This document shows positions 6,776 through 19,627 of a stretch of DNA of 64,000 nucleotides, piece by piece. The notes beneath the pieces were generated by a model. It did no database searches, had not been told where the DNA came from, and was given only the letters and a program-made list of their open reading frames with translations. Location of the stretch: assembly GCA_050173015.1 (NCBI GenBank), contig JBFXLE010000016.1, positions 1-64,000 on the forward strand, given 5' to 3'. A program made the translations under genes and the position numbers. Position 1 is the first letter of the stretch. Each line of letters opens with the position of its first letter. This DNA comes from Calditrichaceae bacterium. Lineage in GTDB: Bacteria; Calditrichota; Calditrichia; Calditrichales; JBFXGD01.

Positions 6776-6837
6776 GACCCACCCCTTTCGGTTTGAGATT
6801 GAATCCCCCGGCAGAATATTTCCGGATTGATTCAAGA

Positions 6838-7012
6838 ATAAAGAAAAAGGATAAAAGATAAAAGAGAAAAGAAAAAAGTAGGAAGTAGGAAGTAGGAAGT
6901 AGGAAGTAGGAAGTTTAAGAAAAAAGATAAAAGAGAAAAGAAAAAAGTAAGGAGTAGGAAGTGGGAAGTAGGAAGTGAAGAGCGTTAAGAGAAAAGAGTT
7001 AAGAGTTAAGAG
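6838..7012. repeat. Purine-rich heptamer tandem array (TAGGAAG x5, GTTAAGA, AAAAGAG/AAAAGAT units)
   Basis: Directly visible 7-nt periodicity; inverted copy of the 411-506 family. Confidence 0.88.
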
Positions 7013-7386: not shown

Positions 7387-8778
7387 ATGAGAAGAATGGT
7401 AAAAAATATACTTATATTTACTCCTGTCTTACCGCTTTTCTTCCTATTCATTTTTCTTGTCTTTACCGGCTGTTCAACATTAAGGTCCATATCCGAAAGA
7501 TTCGATAACCGTATGGGTGAGGCTATTCGCGGTATGGATCACGCTATCGCCATTCTGGCTCAGCAATCTGCTGACTGGCAAGTAGTGGTTGCCAACCTGG
7601 AAAAAGAAATAACCAGGGATATACAATCAACCATTCGGGCTGAAATCACCGACTTAACAAGAAACGCTGTGCTTTCCACAGGAGCAGAGGTCCGTTGTAA
7701 CGCCGAATTTATGCGTATAAAAATACGAAGAGAACTTATCGATCTTCGCAATGATCTGGCTATAACCATAAACGCCGCGTTAGGGGGAGATCGGGTGCCC
7801 CTTCTTCCATCAGAACCTGTCAGACCTTTTATCTGTGATATAGTTCCATCTGCCGTTGATATGTCATTAGATGATGAACGCCGTCTAAAAGTGGATATTT
7901 ACGGCTTTGATCTGCGTTCATCTCCAATAAAAGTCAGTTATAAAACCTATGGCTCGTTTAAAGGAAAAACAACCGGTGGAAAAGCTAATTTCTACTCAGT
8001 AATGAACGAACGCTATCAGACCGCTCTTGTCGCGCCGAAATCAACCGGTATTTTAAGGGAAAATATTATAACTAATACTTTTGAACTAAATGATCCCTTT
8101 AGACTTTTTGAACATGACATATCATCAGCCATCTCCATTATAAGTGACTTTCACGCCGTGCTTGATTTGACCGGTTCTGGCGCGAATCTGCCTCCTAATG
8201 TTAAGGAAATATTGCTTAGCTGGGATAATAAAATTCAATGTGAGATTCCCATACTTATTCATGAAAAGGTGCTCGAATGCAGAACCTGGGATTCAACATT
8301 TGTTCTTCAGCCTCTGACGTTTGTTCCAACCGCTGTTGTCAACAGTCCCTATGGTGGAAACCCGGATACCGATTTTCATGGTCATGGCCCCTGTGTTGTA
8401 TTTAGCTTGTTTATAAGTATCGATCCATCCCGCAAGACATTAAACGCGACAGTATTTATGGATGCCTGGGAATGTCCCGATGATTTTTCTAAAATAAAAA
8501 AGGATTATACCCAGGCTATTGAAACCAAAACCTTTCCAATAGCGAAGATTACCGATCCGGATATGATCATGATGGGTTTTAATCTCGAGTCCGAAATTGT
8601 GGACCGATATATTGATAGTAATATAAATCCGGATTTGCGTACTTATAGCAGCGCGGCTCCGGCGTTCAAGATTGAGTTTACCGGGGATACGGATGGAGAT
8701 GAAGCCGGCAGCCGGACCGGAGCGATAATCAGCTTTAATCCGATAAAAATTAAACTTCAAAAATGCGGGTATAAATAA
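7387..8778 (+). CDS. Hypothetical lipoprotein
   Basis: AAGGAG RBS; hydrophobic N-terminus ending in FTGC lipobox; 463-aa ORF, no family recognised. Confidence 0.75.
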   Translation: MRRMVKNILIFTPVLPLFFLFIFLVFTGCSTLRSISERFDNRMGEAIRGMDHAIAILAQQSADWQVVVANLEKEITRDIQSTIRAEITDLTRNAVLSTGAEVRCNAEFMRIKIRRELIDLRNDLAITINAALGGDRVPLLPSEPVRPFICDIVPSAVDMSLDDERRLKVDIYGFDLRSSPIKVSYKTYGSFKGKTTGGKANFYSVMNERYQTALVAPKSTGILRENIITNTFELNDPFRLFEHDISSAISIISDFHAVLDLTGSGANLPPNVKEILLSWDNKIQCEIPILIHEKVLECRTWDSTFVLQPLTFVPTAVVNSPYGGNPDTDFHGHGPCVVFSLFISIDPSRKTLNATVFMDAWECPDDFSKIKKDYTQAIETKTFPIAKITDPDMIMMGFNLESEIVDRYIDSNINPDLRTYSSAAPAFKIEFTGDTDGDEAGSRTGAIISFNPIKIKLQKCGYK

Positions 8779-9028
8779 TAACCATTTTTTTGTGGATATA
8801 TGCTATTTTCCCGCGTTAATATAACCCGGCTATAAAAGATCGACCATTATTTAAGTCGGACGTAAAACTAACGCGGTGTATCAGAAGACCCGGGCTTGTA
8901 TAACCTGCATATGCCAAATCACATTTGGAGCAAGAGTTCCGTTGTATTCGCATTTATAGTCATAAAAGGCGTACCTTTTATTATCCCGGCGAAAGACAAC
9001 TTTTATCGAACATCCGGTTTGCATCAAT

Positions 9029-9448
9029 TTATTTTATCTTCGCCTTGATAGCCATCAGAATTTTTGTCATTTCTAAATCTGATAAACCTTTAATTTCCAC
9101 CGTTACGCCTTTTATTTTCCCGTAATTTTTCCCATTGATAAACTGATCGATGTATTCTTGCTTTAGTTTGCTGCTTTTTAATAAATCTTCAGCTTTATCG
9201 GTAAAATAGAAGGTGGTCTTAAAATGATTCTGATAAACAGAAACCCAGCAAATCGTTTTTTTCTTTTTTGTTACTTTAAAAAGCCAGCTCTTTCCGTCAT
9301 TATAATAACGCCATTCCGTTGAGATTAACGGATCCTCTTTTAATAATTTGATAAATGAATCCCAGGTGCTTTTCACATCTCCGAGATAACGATCCAGAAC
9401 TTCGTCATCCGGAAATTCATTTTTATCTTTTAAACAAGGCTCTTCCAT
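9029..9448 (-). CDS. DUF3788-like protein
   Basis: EWRYYNDGKSWLFKVTKKKKTICWVSV pattern; GGGG RBS. Confidence 0.75.
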   Translation of the reverse strand: MEEPCLKDKNEFPDDEVLDRYLGDVKSTWDSFIKLLKEDPLISTEWRYYNDGKSWLFKVTKKKKTICWVSVYQNHFKTTFYFTDKAEDLLKSSKLKQEYIDQFINGKNYGKIKGVTVEIKGLSDLEMTKILMAIKAKIK

Positions 9449-9588
9449 ATTTTTCCCCTGGATGTATTATGTCTGATTTCACATCATCATTTATTGACAT
9501 AAAAGTTACAATGAACCGCTTAAAAGGCCTGAACAAATATTACTAAACCAAAGTCATGATTCGTGCCGGGTGTCTGCTAAAGTATTTA

Positions 9589-9984
9589 TCAGGCCGTTTG
9601 TCCGACACTGTTGGATATATTCTTATGATTCAGCCATCCAAATCCCGCGAAGAGGACAAGCCATACGCCGGTTCGGATAGACATGGCGCGGAGGCTGTCA
9701 GCGGCAATCGCGTATCCATTTGTACTAAGGAAGTAAATGACGATAAGCGCGACGAGATTGAGCGCGAAGATGGCAGCGGCCAAATACATCCCTTGTTTGA
9801 GGTTCCGCCAGGCGATGACGCTTGTTGTCACATAGATAATTCCCATGATGGCGTTATAGATTAGCAGCGGTTTAAAAACGACATACCCGGGATCTGCACC
9901 AAGAAGTGTACGGGTACCCACAAATATTGTCATCAGACCATAAAGAGCCGCTATCAGTATCAATACGATTTTGGTAATCTTCAT
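9589..9984 (-). CDS. Hypothetical membrane protein (4 TM)
   Basis: AAGGA RBS; four hydrophobic segments. Confidence 0.75.
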   Translation of the reverse strand: MKITKIVLILIAALYGLMTIFVGTRTLLGADPGYVVFKPLLIYNAIMGIIYVTTSVIAWRNLKQGMYLAAAIFALNLVALIVIYFLSTNGYAIAADSLRAMSIRTGVWLVLFAGFGWLNHKNISNSVGQTA

Positions 9985-10300
9985 ACAATAATTTTCCTTT
10001 TCAGTTTTGTTTTCAATAAAAGACCTAACCTAAAAATGAGCTGACATCTATATAAAACAAACTCAACTGTATCCGTGTATTTAACACATGAAGCAAAACA
10101 TAAGGGTTGCAAAAATATCGATATCATTATAAACAAACAAAATGAAAGATTCAAGTGCCTATGATCGCTGGTGAACCGGACGACAGAAACTCTATAATGT
10201 GACTAAAACAAGCAACCTTTTAAGACGCCTTCATATTATCCGTGCGGTCTTGCCATAATTGTTAGCTATTGACTTATTCATAAATATTATTAATATATAA

Positions 10301-10320
10301 CCCCGCCGGTTATGGCGGGG
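10301..10320 (-). terminator. GC-rich hairpin downstream of sorting-domain fragment 1
   Basis: CCCCGCC-GGTTAT-GGCGGGG flanked by AT-rich sequence. Confidence 0.5.
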
Positions 10321-10383
10321 TATAAATGAAAACCTGTCTCTACGAGCCGATCACGCAAATCACTCAAAAAAAGGCAGGTTTTC

Positions 10384-10722
10384 TTATTTGGCCAGCAGCA
10401 TCTTTTTAATAAACCTTTTTTCACCGGATATAAGCTCATAGATATAAATTCCGCTGGCAACCCGGGCGCCGGCCTGATTGACGCCGTTCCATTTCGCTTC
10501 ATGATAACCTTCGGACAGGTAACCATCAACGAGAGTCGCCACCTTTGCTCCGGTAACGGAATAGATAACAAGTTTCACATTGGCTGCTTCGGGTAAACCG
10601 AATCGGATGGTGGTGACCGGGTTAAAGGGGTTGGGATAGTTTCCCTGAAGCGAAAATTCCGCCGGTACAGAATTGATAGCCATTTCCCGCCTATTACTGT
10701 AAATAAAATATCTTTTTATCAT
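10384..10722 (-). pseudogene. Stand-alone C-terminal sorting domain (FlgD-Ig / T9SS type-A-like CTD) fragment, copy 1
   Basis: FSLQGNYPNPFNPVTTIRF...WNG...VASGIYIY...KKMLLAK; no cargo domain and no complete signal peptide. Confidence 0.8.
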
Positions 10723-10740
10723 TTTACTCCGTGATAATGG

Positions 10741-11172
10741 TTAAAAATTAACACGAATTGCTTTAATTGTGTCTTCCGGGAATCGTACATATAACAAACT
10801 ATCGTTAAAGGAGGAAATGGTATCTCTTTTAAAACGATAGCGTCTGAAACTTGGAAAAATATCTGCCTGGTCCCAGTATTTGGATACATTGATTTGCAAT
10901 TCTCTTGTACATCCTAAATATACCTCCTCAGGGGCTTGTATCATCAAACGCATATCGAAATCATCATCCTGATAATTTCTTAGCTGATACCAGGAAATAT
11001 CTTCCTCCGGATAATAGGTAATCGTCTCCAGTTCTATTGCCGTAACAGAACTATCCCGGGGCGATTCGACTTCATATGTTAGCGTAAATAATTTTTCCTC
11101 AGGATCGGTTCCGGAATCTTTGCATGATAAGAACACAAAAAGAATGCTGAAAACAGCAAATGCATACCTCAT
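10741..11172 (-). CDS. Hypothetical lipoprotein
   Basis: GGAG RBS; signal peptide with FLSC lipobox; acidic mature part. Confidence 0.8.
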   Translation of the reverse strand: MRYAFAVFSILFVFLSCKDSGTDPEEKLFTLTYEVESPRDSSVTAIELETITYYPEEDISWYQLRNYQDDDFDMRLMIQAPEEVYLGCTRELQINVSKYWDQADIFPSFRRYRFKRDTISSFNDSLLYVRFPEDTIKAIRVNF

Positions 11173-11670
11173 AATTTCTCCGCTTTTTACTGATTATTTA
11201 TTTTCCATTTTGCCATATTTGCCTCATGTAAAACCGCAGGGATATTCTGATTTTCTGTAAGTATAACCAATTGTTCGTTTTGGCTTTTTAAACTGCCAGG
11301 ATTGGAATAGCTGAAGCTTCGTCACAATACAAACCTTAGGAATATTAATTAGTGACAGGATAATTTTAATTGAATTTAACAATTTCAGTAACGTCATAGA
11401 TTCTCATTGGTTACTAAAAAATTGAAATGTTAAATTTATTTATTGTACAATATAGGCGCCAAAAATGGTTGTTCTTAAGATTCAGAGCTAAGTATTTGAT
11501 TCTATCAAAACTCAGTATCCAATACGATATGTCATCCTGACAAGAAATATAATCCATGAGGTAAGAAGAATAACGTACCCAATATACATTTCAAAAAATT
11601 TTAATGCAATTTAGTGAAATCATTAATTTATACTACATTTTATTTTAATGACATTCCAATCTCCTTCCAA

Positions 11671-12921
11671 TCAGTTCTCTTTAAATATGGTGATCATATT
11701 GTTCTCTGACTTTATATTTTCAAGGAGTTTAATTACTGAACTTTGATATGTCCTTTCAATGAAACTTTTATTCTGTGGTACATTTATCAAAGTCCCGTTT
11801 TCCATGTTAATTGAATAAATATTTTGATCTTTTATAAACAAAAAGGATTCAACCGAATCGGATTTCATCAATATCGGTCTGTAATCATTAATATTGCTTA
11901 CCCATTGTGGCATTAAATTCTGAGATAACTTAGTAACGATAGATATTCCTTTTTTAGAACTATTATCTTGCAAAATTCCAAACAAAGTGATCTCGTTGTT
12001 TTTAATATGGATTGAGCCTATATCACTATTTCGATATATTTTAAAATATGGACTTGCATTTAAAACAATATTTTGCGTTTCTTCTATTTTCTTATTTTTT
12101 ATATTATAAATGATAGCTTTTGATGTTGTTGCCTCAAACCGATTTAAAATTTGATTTCGCTTTAATTTTTTCCTTTCATCGAAGATCTTTTTCTTTTTGT
12201 CATCTAAATTTTCATACTTTTTTTTATATTCATCCTCTGATATTTCATTAGTGTCGTACTGTAGTTTAAGTTGCGTCAGATCGTGAACAATGTCTCTCTC
12301 TTTTTTGGATATATCTAGTCTTCGTTTCATATATTCAGGGTTTTCTCTCACTTCTTCTTGGATTAAAAAAATCCGTTCATTGTCATACCAATCTGATTCA
12401 ACAAAAGGTATATCGATGATTGTCTTTGTTCTATCTTCTAAAGAAATAATTTCAAGTTTGCTCTCTCCATAATCAGGTAATGAACAAGTTAATAATTTTT
12501 TTTCATCAGGCGACAAACTGTATCGCGAAGAAATTGACTTGGTTTCCCATATTAGTGATCCATTCTTTAAATCGTAAACAAAAATTTGATCAGGTTCTTT
12601 TTTCAGACCATATCCAGCTTCGTGCCCAGAAATTATTAATACATGCAGGCCTAAATTCTCCAAAGGCCGATGATATTTAATATTCCCTTGTGTAAGTTTT
12701 TTTTCAAATAATTTTTTGCCATTCTTGTTATACAGATATGCCGTAAAATATGGATACTCATTCTTTCTAGTATCGATTGTAATATAATTTTTACTAGGTG
12801 TATAGTCATAGATCTCTTGAGTCACGGGGAAAATAATTTCAACTCTGTTTTTTTGCCATTTTCCAGAAATTACAAATGTAAATGATAATATAATGAGAAG
12901 AGTAAATATCTGGTTTTTCAT
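11671..12921 (-). CDS. Hypothetical exported protein, probably beta-propeller-like with a coiled-coil insertion
   Basis: Signal peptide; VYDLKNGSLIWE and LSPDEKKLL blade-like motifs; K/E-rich helical insert; very AT-rich. Confidence 0.75.
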   Translation of the reverse strand: MKNQIFTLLIILSFTFVISGKWQKNRVEIIFPVTQEIYDYTPSKNYITIDTRKNEYPYFTAYLYNKNGKKLFEKKLTQGNIKYHRPLENLGLHVLIISGHEAGYGLKKEPDQIFVYDLKNGSLIWETKSISSRYSLSPDEKKLLTCSLPDYGESKLEIISLEDRTKTIIDIPFVESDWYDNERIFLIQEEVRENPEYMKRRLDISKKERDIVHDLTQLKLQYDTNEISEDEYKKKYENLDDKKKKIFDERKKLKRNQILNRFEATTSKAIIYNIKNKKIEETQNIVLNASPYFKIYRNSDIGSIHIKNNEITLFGILQDNSSKKGISIVTKLSQNLMPQWVSNINDYRPILMKSDSVESFLFIKDQNIYSINMENGTLINVPQNKSFIERTYQSSVIKLLENIKSENNMITIFKEN

Positions 12922-13199
12922 TTATGGCTCTCCCAATTTTAATTCTATTAGTGCCCTATATTTAACGTTCCCAGTTTTATATAAGCCCTGTCGGAAAAAT
13001 ATATGACATCTTGAAATACCTCGCGATGATTCAAAGTCTTTTTGAATTTTTATTTTAATACCTATAGCGGTTATTCATATTTATAAAAATCAAGAATTTA
13101 AAACTTTATCAAAACAAAGAACGATTTTAGGATTAAGTTCATATGACTAACCATAACCGTAGATATTCAACAAGAAAGATAAAAGGTCAATTATTTTTA

Positions 13200-13215
13200 C
13201 GCATTTTCCGTGCCA
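13200..13215 (-). promoter_or_regulatory. Candidate sigma54 -24/-12 promoter
   Basis: Minus strand TGGCACGGAAAATGCG (GG-N10-GC), pointing at the 12921 gene. Confidence 0.5.
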
Positions 13216-13292
13216 AAAATATTTTACAAGGCTTATTTTTTTTATAAACAATAAATTTTGCTCTAATACAGAAATATAGTCCTTTCATCCCA

Positions 13293-13333
13293 ATGTGAAC
13301 GATCGTTCTCATATTGTGAAGTATCGTTCACAT
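13293..13333. promoter_or_regulatory. Tandem imperfect palindromes TGTGAA-N6-TTC(A/T)CA, candidate enhancer (UAS) sites
   Basis: ATGTGAACGATCGTTCTCAT and TTGTGAAGTATCGTTCACAT, 21 bp apart, ~80-120 nt upstream of the -24 element. Confidence 0.5.
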
Positions 13334-13359
13334 GCTGCTGCTGTTTTCCACAAACCTAC

Positions 13360-13661
13360 TTTGGCCAGCAGCATCTTTTTAATAAATCTTTTTTCACCGG
13401 AGATCAGCTCATAGATATAAATTCCGCTGGCCACCCGGGCGCCGGCCTGATTGACGCCGTTCCATTGCGCTGCATGATAACCTTCGGACAGGTAACCATC
13501 CACCAGAGTCGCTACCTTTGCTCCGGTAACGGAATAGATAACAAGTTTCACATTGGCTGCTTCGGGTAAACCGAATCGGATGGTGGTGACCGGGTTAAAG
13601 GGGTTGGGATAGTTTCCCTGATGCGAGAATTTCGCCGGTACGGCGCTGATGGCCATTTCCC
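13360..13661 (-). pseudogene. Stand-alone C-terminal sorting domain fragment, copy 2 (within ORF 13309-13722)
   Basis: 302-nt direct repeat of 10387-10688, 17 mismatches by manual count; normal stop lost. Confidence 0.8.
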
Positions 13662-13705
13662 CGTTTTGCTGTGAAGCAGAACATTGATAATACATCCTGT
13701 ACTTT

Positions 13706-14209
13706 TTATAAAGTATAGTCATCCATTTTTCTTAATGGCATTGGAAATACTGCCCGAATATTGTAATCAGGTTCCAATTTTTTAAATTTTAGCAAATTCA
13801 ATTCTATTGAAGAAAATACAAGGTAACCACTAAATGCGGTAACTCTTGGAGAATATTGAAACTTATTATTCTCTTTATAAAATAAAAACCCAACACCTCC
13901 CCCTTTTAATAATTGTATTTTGTGTTCTCCAATTGGTTCGGTTATGGCGCCAACCTGAAAATCAACATATTTGTATGGAAGAAATGTATCATTATTATTT
14001 TTAAAATTATTTCTATTTCCAAAAGTTATATTATAAAAATAATCTTGCTCAGTGTTTAATATTCCCAGGCTAATTTTAAAACCATAAATAACCCCGTTAT
14101 TAAAATTATAACCGATGCTAATTCCAGGACTGATATATGGAACTATTTTTTGTGAAAATGAAACTTGATTTAAACAAAATAATAATATTAGAAAAAATAG
14201 TTTCTTCAT
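13706..14209 (-). CDS. Hypothetical exported protein, beta-strand rich
   Basis: MKKLFFLILLFCLNQVSFSQ signal peptide; alternating aromatic/Gly strands; very AT-rich. Confidence 0.75.
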   Translation of the reverse strand: MKKLFFLILLFCLNQVSFSQKIVPYISPGISIGYNFNNGVIYGFKISLGILNTEQDYFYNITFGNRNNFKNNNDTFLPYKYVDFQVGAITEPIGEHKIQLLKGGGVGFLFYKENNKFQYSPRVTAFSGYLVFSSIELNLLKFKKLEPDYNIRAVFPMPLRKMDDYTL

Positions 14210-14544
14210 TATGCTGCCTTATTTTTCAAAATTATATAATAGACGAGTGACAACATTTTTTTTATAAATTTCAGATTAATAAACACTAATTACTTTATTT
14301 AGATTTGGTACTAACTCCATAAATCCACTCTCTACGGCTGAAGCAAAAAGATAAAAGATACCCTAAAATCAATATTATTATAAACAGTAGTGATCCGTTT
14401 TCCAAGTACAAAAAAATTAGTGCGGGCGCTCCGGCTCACTGGAGCAGTGTAACTGATTTAAAAATGACCGGATACATATCTATTTGGTAATGGCCATATG
14501 AAAAAGCTCAAATGATTCCTAACCATACCAATCTATATATTACC

Positions 14545-14955
14545 TTTCCCCATCAGGTTTTGACTCTTCCTATCACTTTTTGACCCGCCCTTTCACTTTT
14601 TCACCCCTTCCTATCATGTTTTGACCCGCCCTTTCACTTTTTCACCCCTTCCTATCATGTTTTGACCCGCCCTTTCACTTTTTCACCCCTTCCTATCATG
14701 TTTTGACCCGCCCTATCACTAATCGACCCCTCCCTATCACTTTTTGACCCGTCCCGTCGCTAAATGAACCCTTCCCTCCGGTAATTCTGGCCTCCCCTCC
14801 GTGATTTTACCCTTTCCCGGTCATCTTTGGGACCTTCCCGGCATGTAAATCACCTTTCTTTCTATAATTTTTGGTCTTCCCCGGTGAAAAAATCGCTCCC
14901 GGAGATATGGCAGATCTTCCCCGGCGTGAAGTTACCTGTCCCGGTGCTGATCTCT
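14545..14955. repeat. Tandem array of ~20 units of 20-21 bp with a 41-bp higher-order repeat
   Basis: TGACCCG recurs at 14581, 14622, 14663, 14704, 14745; a YTTCCC-like core keeps the 20/21-bp spacing up to 14936. Confidence 0.9.
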
Positions 14956-14965
14956 AGATGAAGAA

Positions 14966-16219
14966 TCAATCTTCAATGATTGATTTATAAATTTCTTCTT
15001 TAAAATTTTCTTTTTCCATTCGCGCGGCTACCCGGCGGGCATTCGTTTTATAGGAAGGATTATTCAGCAAATCAAGAATTTTTGGTTCAAGGTTTTTTAC
15101 GGAAATTCTGCTTATCTTTATCCCTTTTGGTCCCACACCCATTTCACAGACCATTTTATCCCACACAAATTGATCAATAATATGAGGGATAATCATTGTG
15201 GCGCATCCATATTTTAGCGCCATGTGAGTCGTTCCCGAACCCCCGTGATGAATAACGCCATATATTTTTGGAAGAATCCGGTCATACGAAATTTGGGATA
15301 CAAAATATACCCATTCAGAATCAAATTTCTGCGGTTTGACAAGACCCCCGGATGCGGTATTTATGATGGCGGGGATTTTATTTCGCTCAAGTATTTCAAC
15401 GATTATCCCGGTCATTTCCATCGGGTCGGGATTGGTCATGCTTCCAAAAGTGATAAACAGTACGCGGTCATGTTTTTTTAAAAAATCATTCAATTCCTGA
15501 TCGGAATGCCGCTTCTCATCCTTATTTCTCTGCTGATACCCCAGGACTTTAATATTCTCATTCCAGTAATCCGGTCGAGCAAAAAGGGATGGTGAGATGG
15601 TATAAATAGTTTTGGTTGACCTAAGGGCATCTTTTATTTGTTTCCGGCTTATTTTTCTCTTGAGCCTGAGCCATTTAGCCGTTATCATCACCGTCACGAT
15701 CATCCCGAAACTGACCAATGAAAAGGTCAGTTTATTTAATGTTTCCCCATAATTGCTGTTGAAAGCGATATGCGTATGATCTTTTACATAGTGTATATAA
15801 GGCACCGGGCTCACCAGAATAGACTTACCCGGATGATCTAATCCCCAAATTACAGGATAAATGGCTTTTCCATTGTAGATAATTCTGTCGGGATTTTCAC
15901 CTTCAATTAAGTCATATTGTTTCTTAACTAACTCTTTATTGATTTCCTTCTGCTTAACGGCAAGTTTTACATTGGCCAAAAATTTCTTAAACCCTGATCC
16001 ACTTCCTCCAAGCGCGGCTTTTCCAATATCACTATCCAGCATCCTGATAAATTGTGTTCCCAGTGAAGCAAATTCCATGGCTGAATCCCGCGCGAGATTT
16101 CTAAACTGCTCCGGAAAGGCGCATATTACCCGGTGTCCCTTTTCTTTTAAAATTTCTCCGATTGCCAGAAAAGGCTCCATATCCCCGCGTGTTCCGATTG
16201 AGATTAATATGATCTTCAT
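14966..16219 (-). CDS. Glycosyltransferase, GT1 family (sterol glucosyltransferase-like)
   Basis: GTRGDMEPF, FGSM, IHHGGSGTT and DQFVW motifs. Confidence 0.9.
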   Translation of the reverse strand: MKIILISIGTRGDMEPFLAIGEILKEKGHRVICAFPEQFRNLARDSAMEFASLGTQFIRMLDSDIGKAALGGSGSGFKKFLANVKLAVKQKEINKELVKKQYDLIEGENPDRIIYNGKAIYPVIWGLDHPGKSILVSPVPYIHYVKDHTHIAFNSNYGETLNKLTFSLVSFGMIVTVMITAKWLRLKRKISRKQIKDALRSTKTIYTISPSLFARPDYWNENIKVLGYQQRNKDEKRHSDQELNDFLKKHDRVLFITFGSMTNPDPMEMTGIIVEILERNKIPAIINTASGGLVKPQKFDSEWVYFVSQISYDRILPKIYGVIHHGGSGTTHMALKYGCATMIIPHIIDQFVWDKMVCEMGVGPKGIKISRISVKNLEPKILDLLNNPSYKTNARRVAARMEKENFKEEIYKSIIED

Positions 16220-16319
16220 CTATTCCTGCCTGTATATTTTACCGGATGCGATACCAATATAGGGATTTTAAACTTATTGAGCCATATTCGCTATAAAAAG
16301 CGGTACTGAACTCTGATTC

Positions 16320-16885
16320 TTCTGTCTTTTTTCTTTTATCTTAAACTTCCTACTTCCTACTTCTTACTTTCCGTCTCTTCCCAAGCAAGCAGAAGATCCT
16401 TCTTTCTAAAACCCGCCTCTGGCGGGCAGGATGACAGGTACGGGGGTGCTGCCATTTAAAGGTAACTATCCTCAATATGTCATTCCGCAGGAATCTTCTG
16501 GTTGGTCCGCATACCTGTTCTGACTCTGAAATACAGACGTATAACCATGCGTCTCTACTACGATCTCTTAACTCTTTTTTCTTTTTTCTTAAAATTCCAC
16601 CCGACGCCGGAGGTGTCACACCTTAGTAGAATGGGGGGCTTACGGTAATTGTACGACCCCTACGGGGTCGCAGGATGTTGCGGGGTTTGTTTTTCTACAA
16701 AAATTTCATCCCTTCGGGATTGGGGAACAGGCGTATGAATTATCACTCTTAACTCTTTTCTCTTAACGCTCTTAAATTCTTCCTTCCTACTTCTTACTTT
16801 TTTGCCCGAACTCTTAACTCTTTTCTCTTAACGTTCTGCAATTCCTACTTCCAACTTTTCTTCTTCCTTCCTACTTTCTTTTCCT
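16320..16885. repeat. Composite intergenic repeat cluster: heptamer arrays, AGATCC..GGATGACA / TGTCATTCC..GGAATCT REP-like pair and REPIN-like copy 2
   Basis: Heptamers at ~16320-16370, 16565-16592 and 16746-16885; CCCGCCTCTGGCGGG hairpin; copy of 249-366. Confidence 0.8.
16605..16721. repeat. REP/REPIN-like palindromic element, copy 2
   Basis: CGCCGGAGGTG..GTAG..CGACCCCTACGGGGTCG..CTACAAAAATTTCATCCCTTCGGGATT. Confidence 0.75.
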
Positions 16886-16939
16886 CGGATTTTAAAATTT
16901 TGTATATTCCAATAATCTAAAAATGAAGGAATTTCTGAT

Positions 16940-19627
16940 ATGAGAGTATTATTGGCCATTTTGTTCAGTATTAGTATCGCTGCCGGTCAGATGGCGGGAT
17001 TCACAGAACAGGAAAAAATACAGGGGTACAAATCCACACCGGACAGCGCGTATTTTATTTTTGATGAACAAATGTATGATGTACAGCCTGACCGGGTGGT
17101 GATCGAAGGCTCCTTCCGGGACTGGAATCATGATATGAATGATTCCCGTTGGCATTTAAAGCGGGTTTCACCAAACGGTTTATGGCTTTTGGCGGTCGCG
17201 AATCCCGAATTCTCGATCGTTCCCGCCGGAAGCGTTTTTAAATACCGGATCAACGCGGGCGAATGGCTGTCTCCCCCCGCCGGACCGCCAAACCAAAAAA
17301 GCGGCAATCTTGTTTTCGCGCATCTGGATAGCCCACTCAGACTGGAAGCGGAAATCGCCGGTCCGGAGGATATCCGGCTGATTGTCAAATCGGGAAAAGT
17401 CGATTACAGATATTCGCCCGGTCTGTATGAACTGACCGACTACTCCGGCAGAGCAATTCCCGTCAAAAAGGTTTTTTATGTGGAACCCGGCGTCCTCCGG
17501 ATCATCCCCGCCGAAAAACTCAATATCCGTCGTTTACATTTTTTGAATACACCCTACCAAAAGGACAGACTGACCATTACATACGACGGTTGGTTCCGGC
17601 AGCTAAATTCGGACAAAGAGCTCGGCGCGAATTATGATCCAGACGAGAATGCCACATGGATCCGGCTTTTTGCTCCCAGGGCCGATCTTATTAAATGTTA
17701 TCTCTACCGGGAGCCTTTTGGCGAGGCGGACTCGGTTATCAAATTGATAAGAGATGAGAATGGTGTATGGGAAACCCGTCTGCCGGGAAACCGGGAAGGC
17801 TGGTACTATGATTTCACGGCGCACGGGCCCGATGAACCGGGCAACCGGTTTTATGAATCCAATCCGGTTCATTTTACCGATCCCTGGGGACGCGTGAGTG
17901 TGGATACTTTTGGACCGGCGAGAATCTTTCCAAAAATGACGCCCGCCCCGCCCTTAAAAAATGGCATTCCGGCGATGGAAGATGTGATCGCCTACGAGGT
18001 ACATATTCAGGATTTTACCCGGTTTTTACCGGTGGATGAAAATATGAAAGGCGCGTTTGATGGATTTGTCCTTCCGGGGCTTCGCAATAGTAAGGGAGAA
18101 AAGATCGGTTTTGATCATATTGTGGATCTCGGAGTAAACGTGGTGCATCTGATGCCGGTACAGGAATATCTGCACTATCCGGATGATGAGTGGTCGGAAG
18201 CGTTTCAAAATGATCCTTACATGATCGAACAGGGCATCAGCAAGGAAAATTATCAGTGGGGATACCGCACCTCGCATGCCTTCGCCATAGAAAGCCGTTA
18301 CCGGAAAAAAGGAACCGATTGGGGCGCTCAGAACGAACAATTCCGCGATTTGGTAGCCGCGTTTCATCAAAAGGACATCGCGGTGATCGTCGATCTGGTT
18401 TTTAATCATACCGCAGAAAAAATGGACGGCAGGCAGTATTATTTTAATTTTTCGGCGATCGATATCCCCTATTTTTACCGGACCAATGAACAGCTCGATT
18501 ATCTCGGCGAATACGGCACGGAAACAAAATCCGAGGAACGACCGATGATGCAGCGCTGGATTATTGAGCAATGTACCAATCTGATCAATCAGTATGGAGT
18601 GGATGGTTTCCGCATCGATCTGGCCGGACAAACCGATGAACAGACCCTAAAAGCGCTGCGTGAAGCGGTCGGTGATGATAAAATCATTTACGGAGAACCG
18701 TGGATCGCTTCCGCCGATCCCGATTATGAGAATAATCCTGACTGGGACTGGTATAAAGAAGATTCGCCAATCACATTTTTTCAGGACGACAGCCGCAACG
18801 CCTTCAAAGGCGCGCCATCGAATCCGATGGATAAATTACGTGACCGTGGCTACGCCGGTGGAAACGGCGACCGGGAGAATGTAAAAAAGGCCTTATCCGC
18901 CGGTTTTCCTGAAGACAAAACCGCGGTCTCAGGAATCAACTATCTGGACATTCATGACAACTGGGCCCTGGCCGATCGATTTGCTACCACGGACTGGGAC
19001 GGACGCCGGGGAGTCGATGAGAATCCCTTCAAAATCGCCACCACTCTGTTGTTTACCTCCACGGGTCCCATCGTCCTTCACGGCGGAACCGAGATGATGC
19101 GCAGCAAGGGATTGGCGCCTTTAGAAGAGACTGTCAAATATACAAGGAACGGACCGCTCCATTTTCACGGGAAGCGTGACACTTACAATCTTGCCAACGC
19201 CAACGCGTTTATCTGGGAAAATAAGGGTAAAAATATGGGCAGTGAACCGGATATTCACTGCAACTATGCTGAAATGTATGAATTCTGGAAAGGTCTGATC
19301 GCGTTCAGGTTGAGCGAAGCGGGAAAAGTTTTTCGGATAAAGGAAAAACCGGAGATGGACTACTACCGCTGGATCGAGCCGCAAAACAGCAAACTGCTGG
19401 GTTATTTTGTAAATAATTCCATACTCGTTCTTCTCAATACCGATACGGTTCCCGGGCGGTTTTCAGGGGTGATTTTCCCTGAGGGACAATGGCGGCTAAT
19501 CGGGAACAATGAGCGAATAAACCATGTTCAGGGGATATCCGGCAAAAAAGATTCCGGGTTAAAAGGAGGCCGTTCTCACGATTTGGAAATGGGACCAGAA
19601 AGTTTGAAAATATGGATCAGACACTGA
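16940..19627 (+). CDS. Secreted GH13 pullulanase-like alpha-glucan debranching enzyme
   Basis: Signal peptide; CBM48-like N-terminus; YQWGY, DLVFNHT, DGFRIDLA, YGEPW and IHDN conserved regions. Confidence 0.88.
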   Translation: MRVLLAILFSISIAAGQMAGFTEQEKIQGYKSTPDSAYFIFDEQMYDVQPDRVVIEGSFRDWNHDMNDSRWHLKRVSPNGLWLLAVANPEFSIVPAGSVFKYRINAGEWLSPPAGPPNQKSGNLVFAHLDSPLRLEAEIAGPEDIRLIVKSGKVDYRYSPGLYELTDYSGRAIPVKKVFYVEPGVLRIIPAEKLNIRRLHFLNTPYQKDRLTITYDGWFRQLNSDKELGANYDPDENATWIRLFAPRADLIKCYLYREPFGEADSVIKLIRDENGVWETRLPGNREGWYYDFTAHGPDEPGNRFYESNPVHFTDPWGRVSVDTFGPARIFPKMTPAPPLKNGIPAMEDVIAYEVHIQDFTRFLPVDENMKGAFDGFVLPGLRNSKGEKIGFDHIVDLGVNVVHLMPVQEYLHYPDDEWSEAFQNDPYMIEQGISKENYQWGYRTSHAFAIESRYRKKGTDWGAQNEQFRDLVAAFHQKDIAVIVDLVFNHTAEKMDGRQYYFNFSAIDIPYFYRTNEQLDYLGEYGTETKSEERPMMQRWIIEQCTNLINQYGVDGFRIDLAGQTDEQTLKALREAVGDDKIIYGEPWIASADPDYENNPDWDWYKEDSPITFFQDDSRNAFKGAPSNPMDKLRDRGYAGGNGDRENVKKALSAGFPEDKTAVSGINYLDIHDNWALADRFATTDWDGRRGVDENPFKIATTLLFTSTGPIVLHGGTEMMRSKGLAPLEETVKYTRNGPLHFHGKRDTYNLANANAFIWENKGKNMGSEPDIHCNYAEMYEFWKGLIAFRLSEAGKVFRIKEKPEMDYYRWIEPQNSKLLGYFVNNSILVLLNTDTVPGRFSGVIFPEGQWRLIGNNERINHVQGISGKKDSGLKGGRSHDLEMGPESLKIWIRH

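Follow-up and report, generated by a model that had tools for sequence, protein, structure and literature searches.

The two near-identical C-terminal sorting domains (CTDs) that lie on the minus strand at 10387-10686 (copy A) and 13360-13659 (copy B) of the window, which is the whole stretch of 64,000 nucleotides analysed here, are probably the 3' remnants of two T9SS cargo genes, the heads of which were lost or swapped by recombination, and not the parts of a capture system. On the minus strand, the genes follow one another as an earlier, sequence-only reading had described, namely a 167-aa gene, copy B, a 416-aa gene, a lipoprotein gene and copy A, where the labels "exported" and "lipoprotein" refer to signal-peptide-like N-termini that were judged by eye. 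The features of the locus are:

13706-14209, minus strand: 167-aa gene, predicted by a model to encode an 8-stranded outer-membrane beta-barrel
13660-13705, minus strand: deletion junction, at which the sister-species spacer downstream of the 167-aa gene continues for about 26 nt and then runs directly into the pre-CTD linker
13309-13722, minus strand: copy B open reading frame, with a 16-codon tail that a relative's full-length gene has as well
13360-13659, minus strand: CTD copy B, a 100-codon T9SS type A sorting domain that lacks a stop at the usual place
13078-13359, minus strand: B-type 3' flank, with a palindromic element at about 13291-13333
11671-12921, minus strand: orphan gene of 416 aa, 29% GC, with a signal-peptide-like N-terminus by eye
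11336-11649, minus strand: duplicated intergenic stretch, with 86% identity to both G000:C33:621-935 and G001:C50
10741-11172, minus strand: lipoprotein gene of 143 aa, complete and stand-alone, with its native stop TAA at 10741-10743
10687-10740, minus strand: copy A leader, consisting of spacer, GGAG, ATG and about 12 codons
10384-10722, minus strand: small copy A open reading frame, with GGAG 4 nt ahead of the ATG
10387-10686, minus strand: CTD copy A, a 100-codon T9SS type A sorting domain followed by its stop codon at 10384-10386
10244-10386, minus strand: A-type 3' flank, with a terminator-like hairpin at 10300-10321

A repeat search of the window returned the two copies as direct repeats of 300 nt with 94% identity, which have an identical core of 108 nt in common and are homologous from about 15 codons ahead of the NYPNPFNP motif to the copy A stop codon. 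Copies A and B score 35.7 and 35.8 bits with the T9SS type A sorting domain model TIGR04183 (cut-off 23), 31.5 and 30.5 bits with PF18962 (cut-off 27) and 37.2 and 35.8 bits with PF13860 (cut-off 27), and the T9SS machinery itself is present in the genome, as the PorU sortase model NF033707 matches with 833 bits (cut-off 420) at G000:C19:29311-32592. Neither copy forms the extreme C-terminus of a protein with a signal peptide and a cargo, since only 6 and 24 open codons precede the matches. Such headless CTDs make up 4 of the 59 CTD matches in the genome and all belong to one CTD subfamily, while the remaining 55 have at least 108 aa upstream.

By manual count, the copies differ at 17 of 300 nt, which affects nine synonymous and six replacement codons, the same figures as in the sequence-only reading, and the earlier description of two near-identical headless copies is thereby confirmed. 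The method of Nei and Gojobori gives 11.0 synonymous and 6.0 nonsynonymous changes and a dN/dS of 0.16, and the comparison of copies A and B with a headless copy of the sister species (G001) gives 0.07 and 0.09. Changes private to A or B look constrained, with about 10 synonymous versus 6 replacement changes in our own parsimony assignment of these few changes. Such low values, unlike those of long-dead pseudogenes, call for a loss that is recent, for conversion from working copies or for a function that persists. In the assembly of this genome (G000; draft, 54 contigs, 97.5% complete), no full-length gene with this CTD was found, the best other full CTD being 62% identical, hence no conversion donor is seen in this genome. 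A diversity-generating retroelement was considered and rejected, as the 17 differences are not confined to adenines (by eye on the alignment) and no reverse transcriptase lies nearby.

Full-length genes are found at the same positions in a close relative, the metagenome locus L026, which is 97% (6878-2851), 93% (10642-9029) and 87% (13677-13078) identical to the window. At the position of copy B, L026 has an open reading frame of 667 aa for an M12B metalloprotease (Reprolysin_5, 46.4 bits), followed by a B-type CTD, with 15 differences from copy B over 300 nt, and by the same tail. At the position of copy A, it has an S8 subtilase gene (Peptidase_S8, 75 bits) with an A-type CTD end, after which come the A flank and the same two downstream genes as in the window. 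A complete gene at the syntenic position in a relative, by which a gene remnant can be recognized, is thus present in L026. The relative counts as one witness, as L025 and L026 are 100% identical over 9,718 nt, and its S8 gene has an in-frame TGA, so the locus may be decaying there too. No close match to the heads of the relative was found anywhere in the G000 assembly, and loose ends in run X1, compared by eye, read like a full-length parent. The earlier proposal that the copies diverged while coding in separate parent genes is supported by these M12B and S8 genes, and the search for full-length parents that came with it found them in the relative and among database proteins, not in G000.

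For copy B, the sister species provides the comparison. At G001:C64, the 167-aa gene is followed by an exported open reading frame of at least 513 aa, the last 44 aa of which match with 75% a remnant at G000:C23, where it sits between a 167-aa paralogue and a 5' CTD piece, and the breakpoint at G000:C23 differs from that of copy B. This comparison identifies copy B as a deletion derivative of an operon of a small-barrel gene and a cargo-CTD gene, which is intact in the sister species, and G000:C23 as an intermediate remnant of the same operon. The sister-species cargo has no PDB sequence match and no Pfam match; it matched in 8 of 61 relatives searched, and beyond G001 itself and G039, where the match is to the head, only the last 90-100 aa were covered. 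The B-type 3' flank also follows CTDs in L026, G001:C123 and G001:C50. A frameshift-broken fusion of copy B with the 167-aa gene was rejected, as the paralogue at G000:C23 (90% aa identity) and the orthologue at G001:C64 (91%) end at the same stop as the window gene.

Copy A has a mosaic pattern. At positions 1-45, there are 3 differences to the M12B copy and 34 to the S8 copy; at positions 216-300, there are 8 to the M12B copy and 2 to the S8 copy, and the 3' flank of copy A is of the S8 type. Judged from this pattern, copy A looks like a recombinant with a crossover within the tag. The A-type flank is also found behind CTDs at G000:C6, G001:C138, G001:C102 and in L026, and the copy A leader also precedes a decayed CTD at G001:C50, where the lipoprotein gene is absent. 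The copy A open reading frame shares its frame with that of the upstream lipoprotein, with one TAA in between; homologues of 143-144 aa stop after the same residue, which makes this TAA the native stop, and on the same grounds a lipoprotein-CTD fusion with a nonsense mutation was rejected. The stop is unchanged among the differences listed for four runs, with 182 further differences unlisted.

The type A CTD belongs to a larger shared module, in which a PKD-like domain (named by eye, about 95 aa) and a linker precede it and the 3' flank comes after it. CTDs that are at least 93% identical are carried by the 667-aa M12B protein, a 762-aa PF12708 protein, a 252-aa truncated form and the S8 C-terminal part, and the next best CTD match is at 69%; the pre-CTD stretches of L026 and G001:C64 are 94% identical, with unrelated heads. 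As the sequence-only reading had stated, the CTD copies are more GC-rich than the AT-rich genes around them, with 48-51% GC and a GC3 of 0.51-0.57 versus 27-38% GC and a GC3 of 0.19-0.35 in the three neighbours. Similarly, the cargo heads have a GC3 of 0.25-0.35 versus 0.48-0.55 in the module, and a head-module difference of at least 0.16 occurs in none of the 54 other CTD genes of the genome (mean -0.02, sd 0.06). That the module is common to unrelated AT-rich heads explains the excess of synonymous differences.

Breakpoints within the CTD or at its edge occur in the window and at G000:C6, G000:C23 and G001:C50, and other copies of the family are decaying: G001:C50 has an internal deletion, and G000:C23 and G000:C6 are truncated. 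In three independent headless copies, the 5' limit lies within about 25 nt of the linker, and the upstream gene is, in three cases, in the same frame with a stop, in +1 or in -1 relative to the headless CTD. Border alignments have no common short site beyond the module itself, with 6-7 nt of microhomology at one border. The CTD had been proposed to act as a recombination anchor, and the breakpoints, together with alternative joints in metagenome contigs (below), speak for this part of the idea, but no dedicated capture system was found.

The three neighbours are independent genes, namely a barrel, a stand-alone lipoprotein and a true orphan, with no likeness to a partner or immunity protein in any of them. 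The 167-aa protein has free-standing homologues elsewhere, and next to four distant ones no neighbouring open reading frame with a PNPF-type motif was found, a weak negative from flanks of about 1.5 kb in which one neighbour runs off the locus. The lipoprotein has a frameshifted, truncated paralogue at G000:C33, and a homologue of the 416-aa gene was sought and none was found. The duplicated intergenic stretch adjoins a large helicase-like gene at both G000:C33 and G001:C50. Pfam and NCBIfam place none of the three neighbours in a toxin or immunity family, no recombinase, integrase or transposase was found with Pfam among the 17 open reading frames over window positions 490-23967, and Rfam returned zero matches for 9000-17000 at E up to 0.1. 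The claim that the locus collects partner or immunity genes is therefore not supported, although none of the four outcomes named in advance as speaking against the sequence-only reading (an invariant locus, orphan homologues that never neighbour CTD cargo, lack of a full-length gene with a CTD more than 90% identical, a misassembly) was found. The inverted repeats at 6880-7007 and 16317-16857 were considered as mobile-element ends and rejected, as the element at 16306-16400 has dozens of genome copies.

In the scheme that emerges, a simple deletion accounts for copy B, and copy A fits homologous recombination between dispersed copies of the 3' module. The lineage has a family of secreted enzymes, in which unrelated AT-rich catalytic heads carry a nearly identical 3' module. 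At copy B, as the comparison shows, a deletion took the start codon, the signal peptide and the entire cargo, joining the intergenic spacer to the linker. At copy A, recombination inside the CTD would have taken place between a headless copy from another locus, which brought the lipoprotein gene and the short leader, and a resident S8-type CTD, which contributed its 3' flank. The synonymous excess may then be inherited from the era of working genes or renewed by conversion from working copies, and the small neighbour genes would have come to lie beside the tags by deletions and crossovers, not by a capture mechanism, with the shared module acting as passive portable homology that makes such loci prone to rearrangement. 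Copies without a signal peptide cannot reach the T9SS, and the CTD copies are most likely functionless now. Against the remnant reading, three different exported-protein genes directly precede near-identical headless CTDs in two species, which is unexpected under pure chance decay.

The composition jump, which exceeds that in any of the 54 other CTD genes, raises the question of whether exchange is an evolved trait, in which the CTD and flank form a selected 3' homology arm that swaps secreted-protein cassettes or tags acquired AT-rich exported genes, and headless copies are retained as landing pads or silent donors. Such cassette exchange, a weaker form of the sequence-only idea, would account for the presence of the module, at least 93% identical, on four or more unrelated heads, for the different content before the same CTD and B flank at one chromosomal position in three lineages, for the low dN/dS of the headless copies and for their common 5' limit, though the latter may just mark the module start. 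Contigs of runs X15, X16 and X2 further join 13066 to 10245, placing an A-type flank where the window has the B-type. However, recombinases, integrases and transposases are absent within 24 kb, the alignments of the boundaries show no common short site beyond the module, the neighbours are unfused, each with its own stop and in differing frames, and other copies (G001:C50, G000:C23, G000:C6), like the lipoprotein paralogue at G000:C33, are plainly decaying, and hence we regard cassette exchange as improbable. A broader version, which is still unlikely but less so, sees the PKD-like domain, CTD and 3' flank as a portable "secretion adaptor" that was recombined repeatedly onto AT-rich, probably horizontally acquired exported genes, with heads swapped between strains and headless copies as intermediates or landing pads; if true, it would mirror the polymorphic-toxin loci, with a C-terminal in place of their N-terminal anchor.

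The low dN/dS in all three pairwise comparisons would also be expected if the CTD-only open reading frames were expressed and functional, either stand-alone or recoded onto the upstream protein (copy A by read-through, copy B by frameshift), and the GGAG 4 nt before the copy A ATG, the homologous-leader ATG kept at G001:C50 and the position of copy A in the lipoprotein frame behind a single TAA are in line with this. However, a T9SS sorting domain requires export to the periplasm, and by eye none of these open reading frames has a signal peptide; the frame relation varies over the three cases, so that no single recoding rule applies, lipoprotein (143-144 aa) and barrel homologues end at the same stops without a CTD, and at G001:C50, behind the same leader, the middle of the domain is missing, which makes a function very unlikely. 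Even slightly less credence is due to an assembly artefact, in which a chimeric contig was joined via the repeat and the CTDs truly belong to full-length genes. The genome is a draft of 54 contigs, the copies share the identical core, no public contig among those listed bridges the whole CTD core, sister-genome contigs break exactly at this CTD, and the summed contig depth in run X1 over the CTD bins is 3-5x that of the flanks. Weak joints from 10070 or 10136 to 14566, whose sides of 20-29 nt lie in repeats, and parts of the stretch that lack cover in single runs were left out of the evidence. Yet the 5' junctions of the headless copies fall in unique sequence and were found again in contigs of other public runs: that of copy B is bridged by X15 record 15 (13585-14595) and by pieces in X16 and X2, and that of copy A by X15 record 11 (10573-10908) and by pieces in X16, X2 and X1. 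X15 record 14 spans 11358-13439, taking in the orphan gene and the B flank as well as the 3' part of copy B, and the heads of the relative have no close match in a 97.5% complete assembly. If the assembly took a wrong turn in the core, 3' halves could be exchanged, but this cannot create the missing heads; the pairing of 5' and 3' halves, and hence the copy A mosaic, could be an assembly choice.

Under the remnant reading, the outcome is an ordinary one: in a Calditrichaceae-like genome, secreted-protease genes have left remnants at a T9SS cargo locus that is variable and prone to recombination. It provides a worked example of a T9SS sorting domain and flank that are common, at 93% or more, to unrelated heads of differing base composition, and of module crossovers and deletions that reshape the secreted-protein set between close relatives. 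If such exchange is frequent, it would explain the fast turnover of T9SS cargo in uncultured members of the Fibrobacteres-Chlorobi-Bacteroidetes (FCB) group, and it would be a warning to annotators and assemblers, as contigs break and may be mis-joined at such tags.

Among known systems, 3' gene remnants left by ectopic recombination or deletion resemble the window pieces in that start codon, signal peptide and cargo are missing, complete genes stand at these positions in a relative and further truncated pieces of the family occur in the genome. Different from such remnants, the window copies are intact over the whole domain with low dN/dS, and headless CTDs lie three times directly behind different small exported-protein genes. 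Rhs/CDI polymorphic toxin loci contain orphan toxin-immunity modules, with a constant 5' end and repeated gene pieces amid small genes that support recombination. The window likewise has gene pieces downstream of and between small genes, with homology that could support recombination, but the constant part is the 3' end, the neighbours are independent, with free-standing homologues of barrel and lipoprotein, and no toxin domain, immunity-like protein or full-length master gene was found in this genome. Integron-like cassette systems differ from the locus, in which no recombinase was found in the 17 open reading frames over 490-23967 and no repeated border site in the alignments. In Porphyromonas gingivalis, the T9SS cargo genes kgp, rgpA and hagA undergo domain rearrangement and allelic exchange, and near-identical C-terminal modules, as in the window, yield new combinations of catalytic and C-terminal parts by recombination or conversion (PMC5266723). 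The units shuffled there are adhesin domains inside working genes of one species (PMC5266723), whereas the unit shared here includes the sorting domain and the 3' flank, the heads belong to unrelated enzyme families of other base composition, and what the window contains are headless products.

Two headless T9SS sorting domains (CTDs), that is, CTDs without the N-terminal cargo part or head, form a direct repeat of 300 nt with 94% identity in the window:

10387-10686, minus strand, copy A
13360-13659, minus strand, copy B

The homology runs from about 15 codons 5' of the NYPNPFNP motif to the stop codon of copy A, where copy B has no stop and its frame extends for 16 further codons. A base-by-base recount agrees with the 17 differences counted in the sequence-only reading, and its hand count of nine synonymous and six replacement codons was likewise matched; by Nei-Gojobori the changes number 11 synonymous and six nonsynonymous. 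Both copies exceed the curated cut-off of TIGR04183, the T9SS type A sorting domain (35.7 and 35.8 bits vs 23), and both score >27 and pass the curated cut-offs for PF18962 and PF13860, while a PorU sortase is encoded in the same genome (833 bits vs a cut-off of 420). The gene order claimed earlier, namely 167-aa gene, copy B, 416-aa orphan gene, 143-aa lipoprotein gene and copy A on the minus strand, was borne out, as was the higher GC content of the CTDs, since GC3 is 0.51-0.57 in the copies vs 0.19, 0.27 and 0.35 in the 167-, 416- and 143-aa genes (genome-wide mean 0.44 for ORFs of at least 300 aa). The repeat observation itself is confirmed.

With copy A as a tblastn query, 59 CTD matches were found in the genome of the window (G000), and in 55 of them the CTD closes an open frame that extends 108 aa or more, in most cases several hundred, to its 5' side. 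The four matches without such a frame are copies A and B and two short pieces, comprising the final 69 nt of a CTD at G000:C6:847-945 and the initial 70-85 nt at G000:C23:66496-66567 (C numbers denote contigs), and one subfamily accounts for all four. Full-length parents, which the sequence-only reading had sought, were found in a close relative, whereas within G000 the closest other complete CTD is just 62% identical; the G000 assembly (97.5% complete) also holds no close matches to the relative's heads. Two metagenome loci of this relative, L025 and L026, were retrieved with one exact 38-mer taken from the invariant CTD core, and since they are 100% identical over 9,718 nt they count as a single witness. 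L026 is collinear with the window, with 97% identity to 6878-2851, 93% to 10642-9029 and 87% to 13677-13078. At the position of copy B it has a 667-aa ORF whose start resembles a signal peptide and which continues through an M12B metalloprotease domain (Reprolysin_5, 46.4 bits), a PKD-like stretch of ~95 aa (by eye) and a linker to the CTD. This ORF terminates in the same extra tail that copy B has, and the tail is therefore native. At the position of copy A stands a Peptidase_S8 gene (75 bits) ending in an A-type CTD, followed by the A-type flank (the sequence 3' of copy A), a 131-aa membrane protein and a DUF3788 protein, as in the window. One in-frame TGA (L026 5098-5103, soon after the GTSVAAP motif, identical in L025 and L026) splits the S8 gene into ORFs of 453 and 377 aa, and this full-length parent may itself be inactivated in the relative. 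Segment 6878-9029 of the window is unmatched in L026, where the flanking matches are just ~416 nt apart, and contains a 463-aa lipoprotein-like gene (7387-8778, plus strand) with no Pfam match.

The 167-aa gene 5' of copy B has a paralogue on G000:C23 (90% aa identity) and an orthologue on G001:C64 of the sister species (91%), with an identical stop position in all three. On G001:C64 the orthologue is followed by an exported ORF that reaches 513 aa or more and runs past the contig end, and its final 44 aa match at 75% a remnant that sits on G000:C23 between the 167-aa paralogue and the 5' CTD piece. The window keeps ~26 nt of the G001 spacer after the 167-aa stop and then jumps to the linker before the CTD, and on G000:C23 the jump begins ~45 nt past the stop and lands ~200 nt 5' of the CTD; therefore, deletion took out the start codon, the signal peptide and the cargo, and its breakpoints differ at the two places. 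Copy B is, on these comparisons, a deletion derivative. Elsewhere in the order, the final 90-100 aa of the G001 cargo are found again before CTDs, within open frames 325-854 aa long, which shows that such a stretch before a CTD in an open frame is the normal architecture. Decay of this kind of locus is seen again at G000:C23:66570-66950, where a paralogue of the 135-aa lipoprotein gene of G000:C6 carries an in-frame stop and lies directly 3' of the 5' CTD remnant.

On the side of copy A, 11649-10688 duplicates a locus adjoining a large helicase-like gene; the duplicate holds intergenic sequence, the gene of the 143-aa lipoprotein and a short leader that includes GGAG and ATG. At G000:C33 the lipoprotein paralogue of that locus is frameshifted and truncated, and at G001:C50 the leader is shared, the CTD has lost its middle and there is no lipoprotein gene. 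Over CTD positions 1-45, copy A has three differences vs the M12B copy and 34 vs the S8 copy, over positions 216-300 it has two vs the S8 copy and eight vs the M12B copy, and its flank is S8-type. Copy A thus looks like the product of a crossover within the CTD, and the pattern, with its few informative sites, fits such an origin. No complete CTD core is spanned by any public contig listed, and the mosaic could therefore also be mimicked if the assembly took a wrong path across the identical core of 108 nt. The key 5' junctions of both copies are reproduced independently in public contigs, which were drawn from sequencing runs (X1, X2, X15 and X16) of three studies:

Public contigs across the junctions, by run and window positions
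167-aa gene to copy B: X15 13585-14595; X16 13670-14048; X2 13659-14262
Lipoprotein gene to copy A: X15 10573-10908; X16 10595-10908; X2 10639-11649; X1 10639-10908
Orphan gene to B flank to copy B: X15 11358-13439

Contigs of X15, X16 and X2 also join 13066 to 10245 with 3-4 extra letters, which indicates a variant with the 416-aa gene behind the A-type instead of the B-type flank. Other 3' flanks occur on several loose contig ends around the module (PKD-like stretch, linker and CTD), and loose ends at 13674 (X1, X16 and X2), which by eye resemble the pre-linker stretch of the full-length L026 gene, suggest that full-length carriers of the window CTD type are present in the sample. The G001 contigs stop exactly at the CTD stop (C138 and C102) or just short of the CTD (C64).

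The dN/dS of the headless copies is low, being 0.16 between A and B (Nei-Gojobori) and 0.07-0.09 against the G001 copy, and by our own branch assignment of sites the private changes suggest constraint. Such low values would be explained by recent head loss, or by conversion from copies that still work elsewhere in the population; less probably, the headless copies may have some residual function. The closest description of copies A and B is that of 3' gene remnants at a recombination-prone locus.

Other repeats lie in and around the locus:

290-495, 6836-7007 and 16306-16864, dispersed intergenic repeat with AAGTAGGAAGT-type runs and a GC-rich hairpin-like unit
10025-10160, ~130-nt repeat between the membrane-protein gene and the A flank
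about 13291-13333, palindromic element of ~40 nt in the B flank, centre GAACGATCGTTC
14505-14775, tandem array with a 41-nt period of 20-21-nt half units, strongly C/T-rich on the plus strand, between the 167-aa gene and a glycosyltransferase gene

The dispersed repeat has dozens of copies genome-wide, many close to contig ends, and also makes inverted repeats bracketing 7.0-16.3 kb of the window. The ~130-nt repeat has 72-75% matches at three places on G000:C4 and on G000:C10, and the tandem array has a sister at G000:C5:35769-36119 (84-88% identity). The palindrome, possibly a REP-like element or the binding site of a regulator, is matched at 84-95% on either strand in several contigs of G040, from another family of the class, and also in G024, G001:C209 and G000:C43. 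Contig G000:C6 (1-1600) begins with an IS3-like orfA fragment (by eye), an outer-membrane-protein-like ORF and a small exported ORF. After these stand the 69-nt CTD piece and, behind it, the A flank, and genes for a 135-aa lipoprotein and an ApbE-like protein (by eye) come next; G000:C33 (1-1000) ends with the truncated lipoprotein paralogue and the start of an outer-membrane-protein-like ORF resembling that of C6, and the two contigs may be neighbours parted by an insertion sequence.

In a collection of 5.8 billion clusters, CTDs at least 93% identical were found on four longer proteins, namely the 667-aa M12B protein, a 762-aa protein with PF12708, a 252-aa truncated form starting just before the PKD-like stretch and the 377-aa S8 C-terminal part, and the next best match was 69% identical. 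The pre-CTD stretch is 94% identical between L026 and G001:C64 despite unrelated heads, which exceeds the 85-88% of neighbouring orthologous genes between G001 and the window lineage. GC3 is 0.25-0.35 in the heads and 0.48-0.55 in the module, and a head-to-CTD difference of at least 0.16 occurs in none of 54 other G000 CTD genes (mean -0.02, sd 0.06, maximum 0.142); heads and module therefore have separate histories. This is the strongest support for the earlier proposal that the CTD acts as an anchor. That interpretation as a whole is partly supported. The boldest reading, in which the module serves as a portable secretion adaptor and its recombination drives the turnover of secreted enzymes, we consider unlikely.

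The adjoining genes do not have the character of partner or immunity genes that had been suggested for them. The 167-aa protein is modelled as an 8-stranded beta-barrel (mean pLDDT 81.7) resembling the OprF N-terminal domain, OmpX and PagL (TM 0.52-0.55, Foldseek probability 1.00); it is matched in six of 39 genomes of the order, G000 and G001 included and the four others at 35-39% identity, and no CTD-like neighbours were flagged in the short flanks of its homologues. The 143-aa protein is a stand-alone lipoprotein; its homologues, 143 aa (95% identity) and 144 aa (54%) long, stop at the same residue, so its TAA is native and it is by coincidence that copy A follows in frame. For the 416-aa gene, no relatives turned up in the protein collection or in the 41 genomes searched (G000 included). 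In G001, a third kind of exported gene (294 aa; DUF3108, 27.9 bits vs 26) precedes a headless CTD 93% identical to copy A. Across the three cases the frame of the headless CTD relative to the gene before it differs (in frame behind a stop, +1 and -1), so one recoding rule would not cover them all. No recombinase was found among the 17 ORFs across 490-23967.

Keyword searches of the literature yielded no paper on headless sorting domains or CTD-anchored head exchange, a result that does not by itself show that there are none. Reshuffling of C-terminal modules between T9SS cargo genes by recombination has been described in Porphyromonas gingivalis, for its gingipain and HagA genes (PMC5266723).
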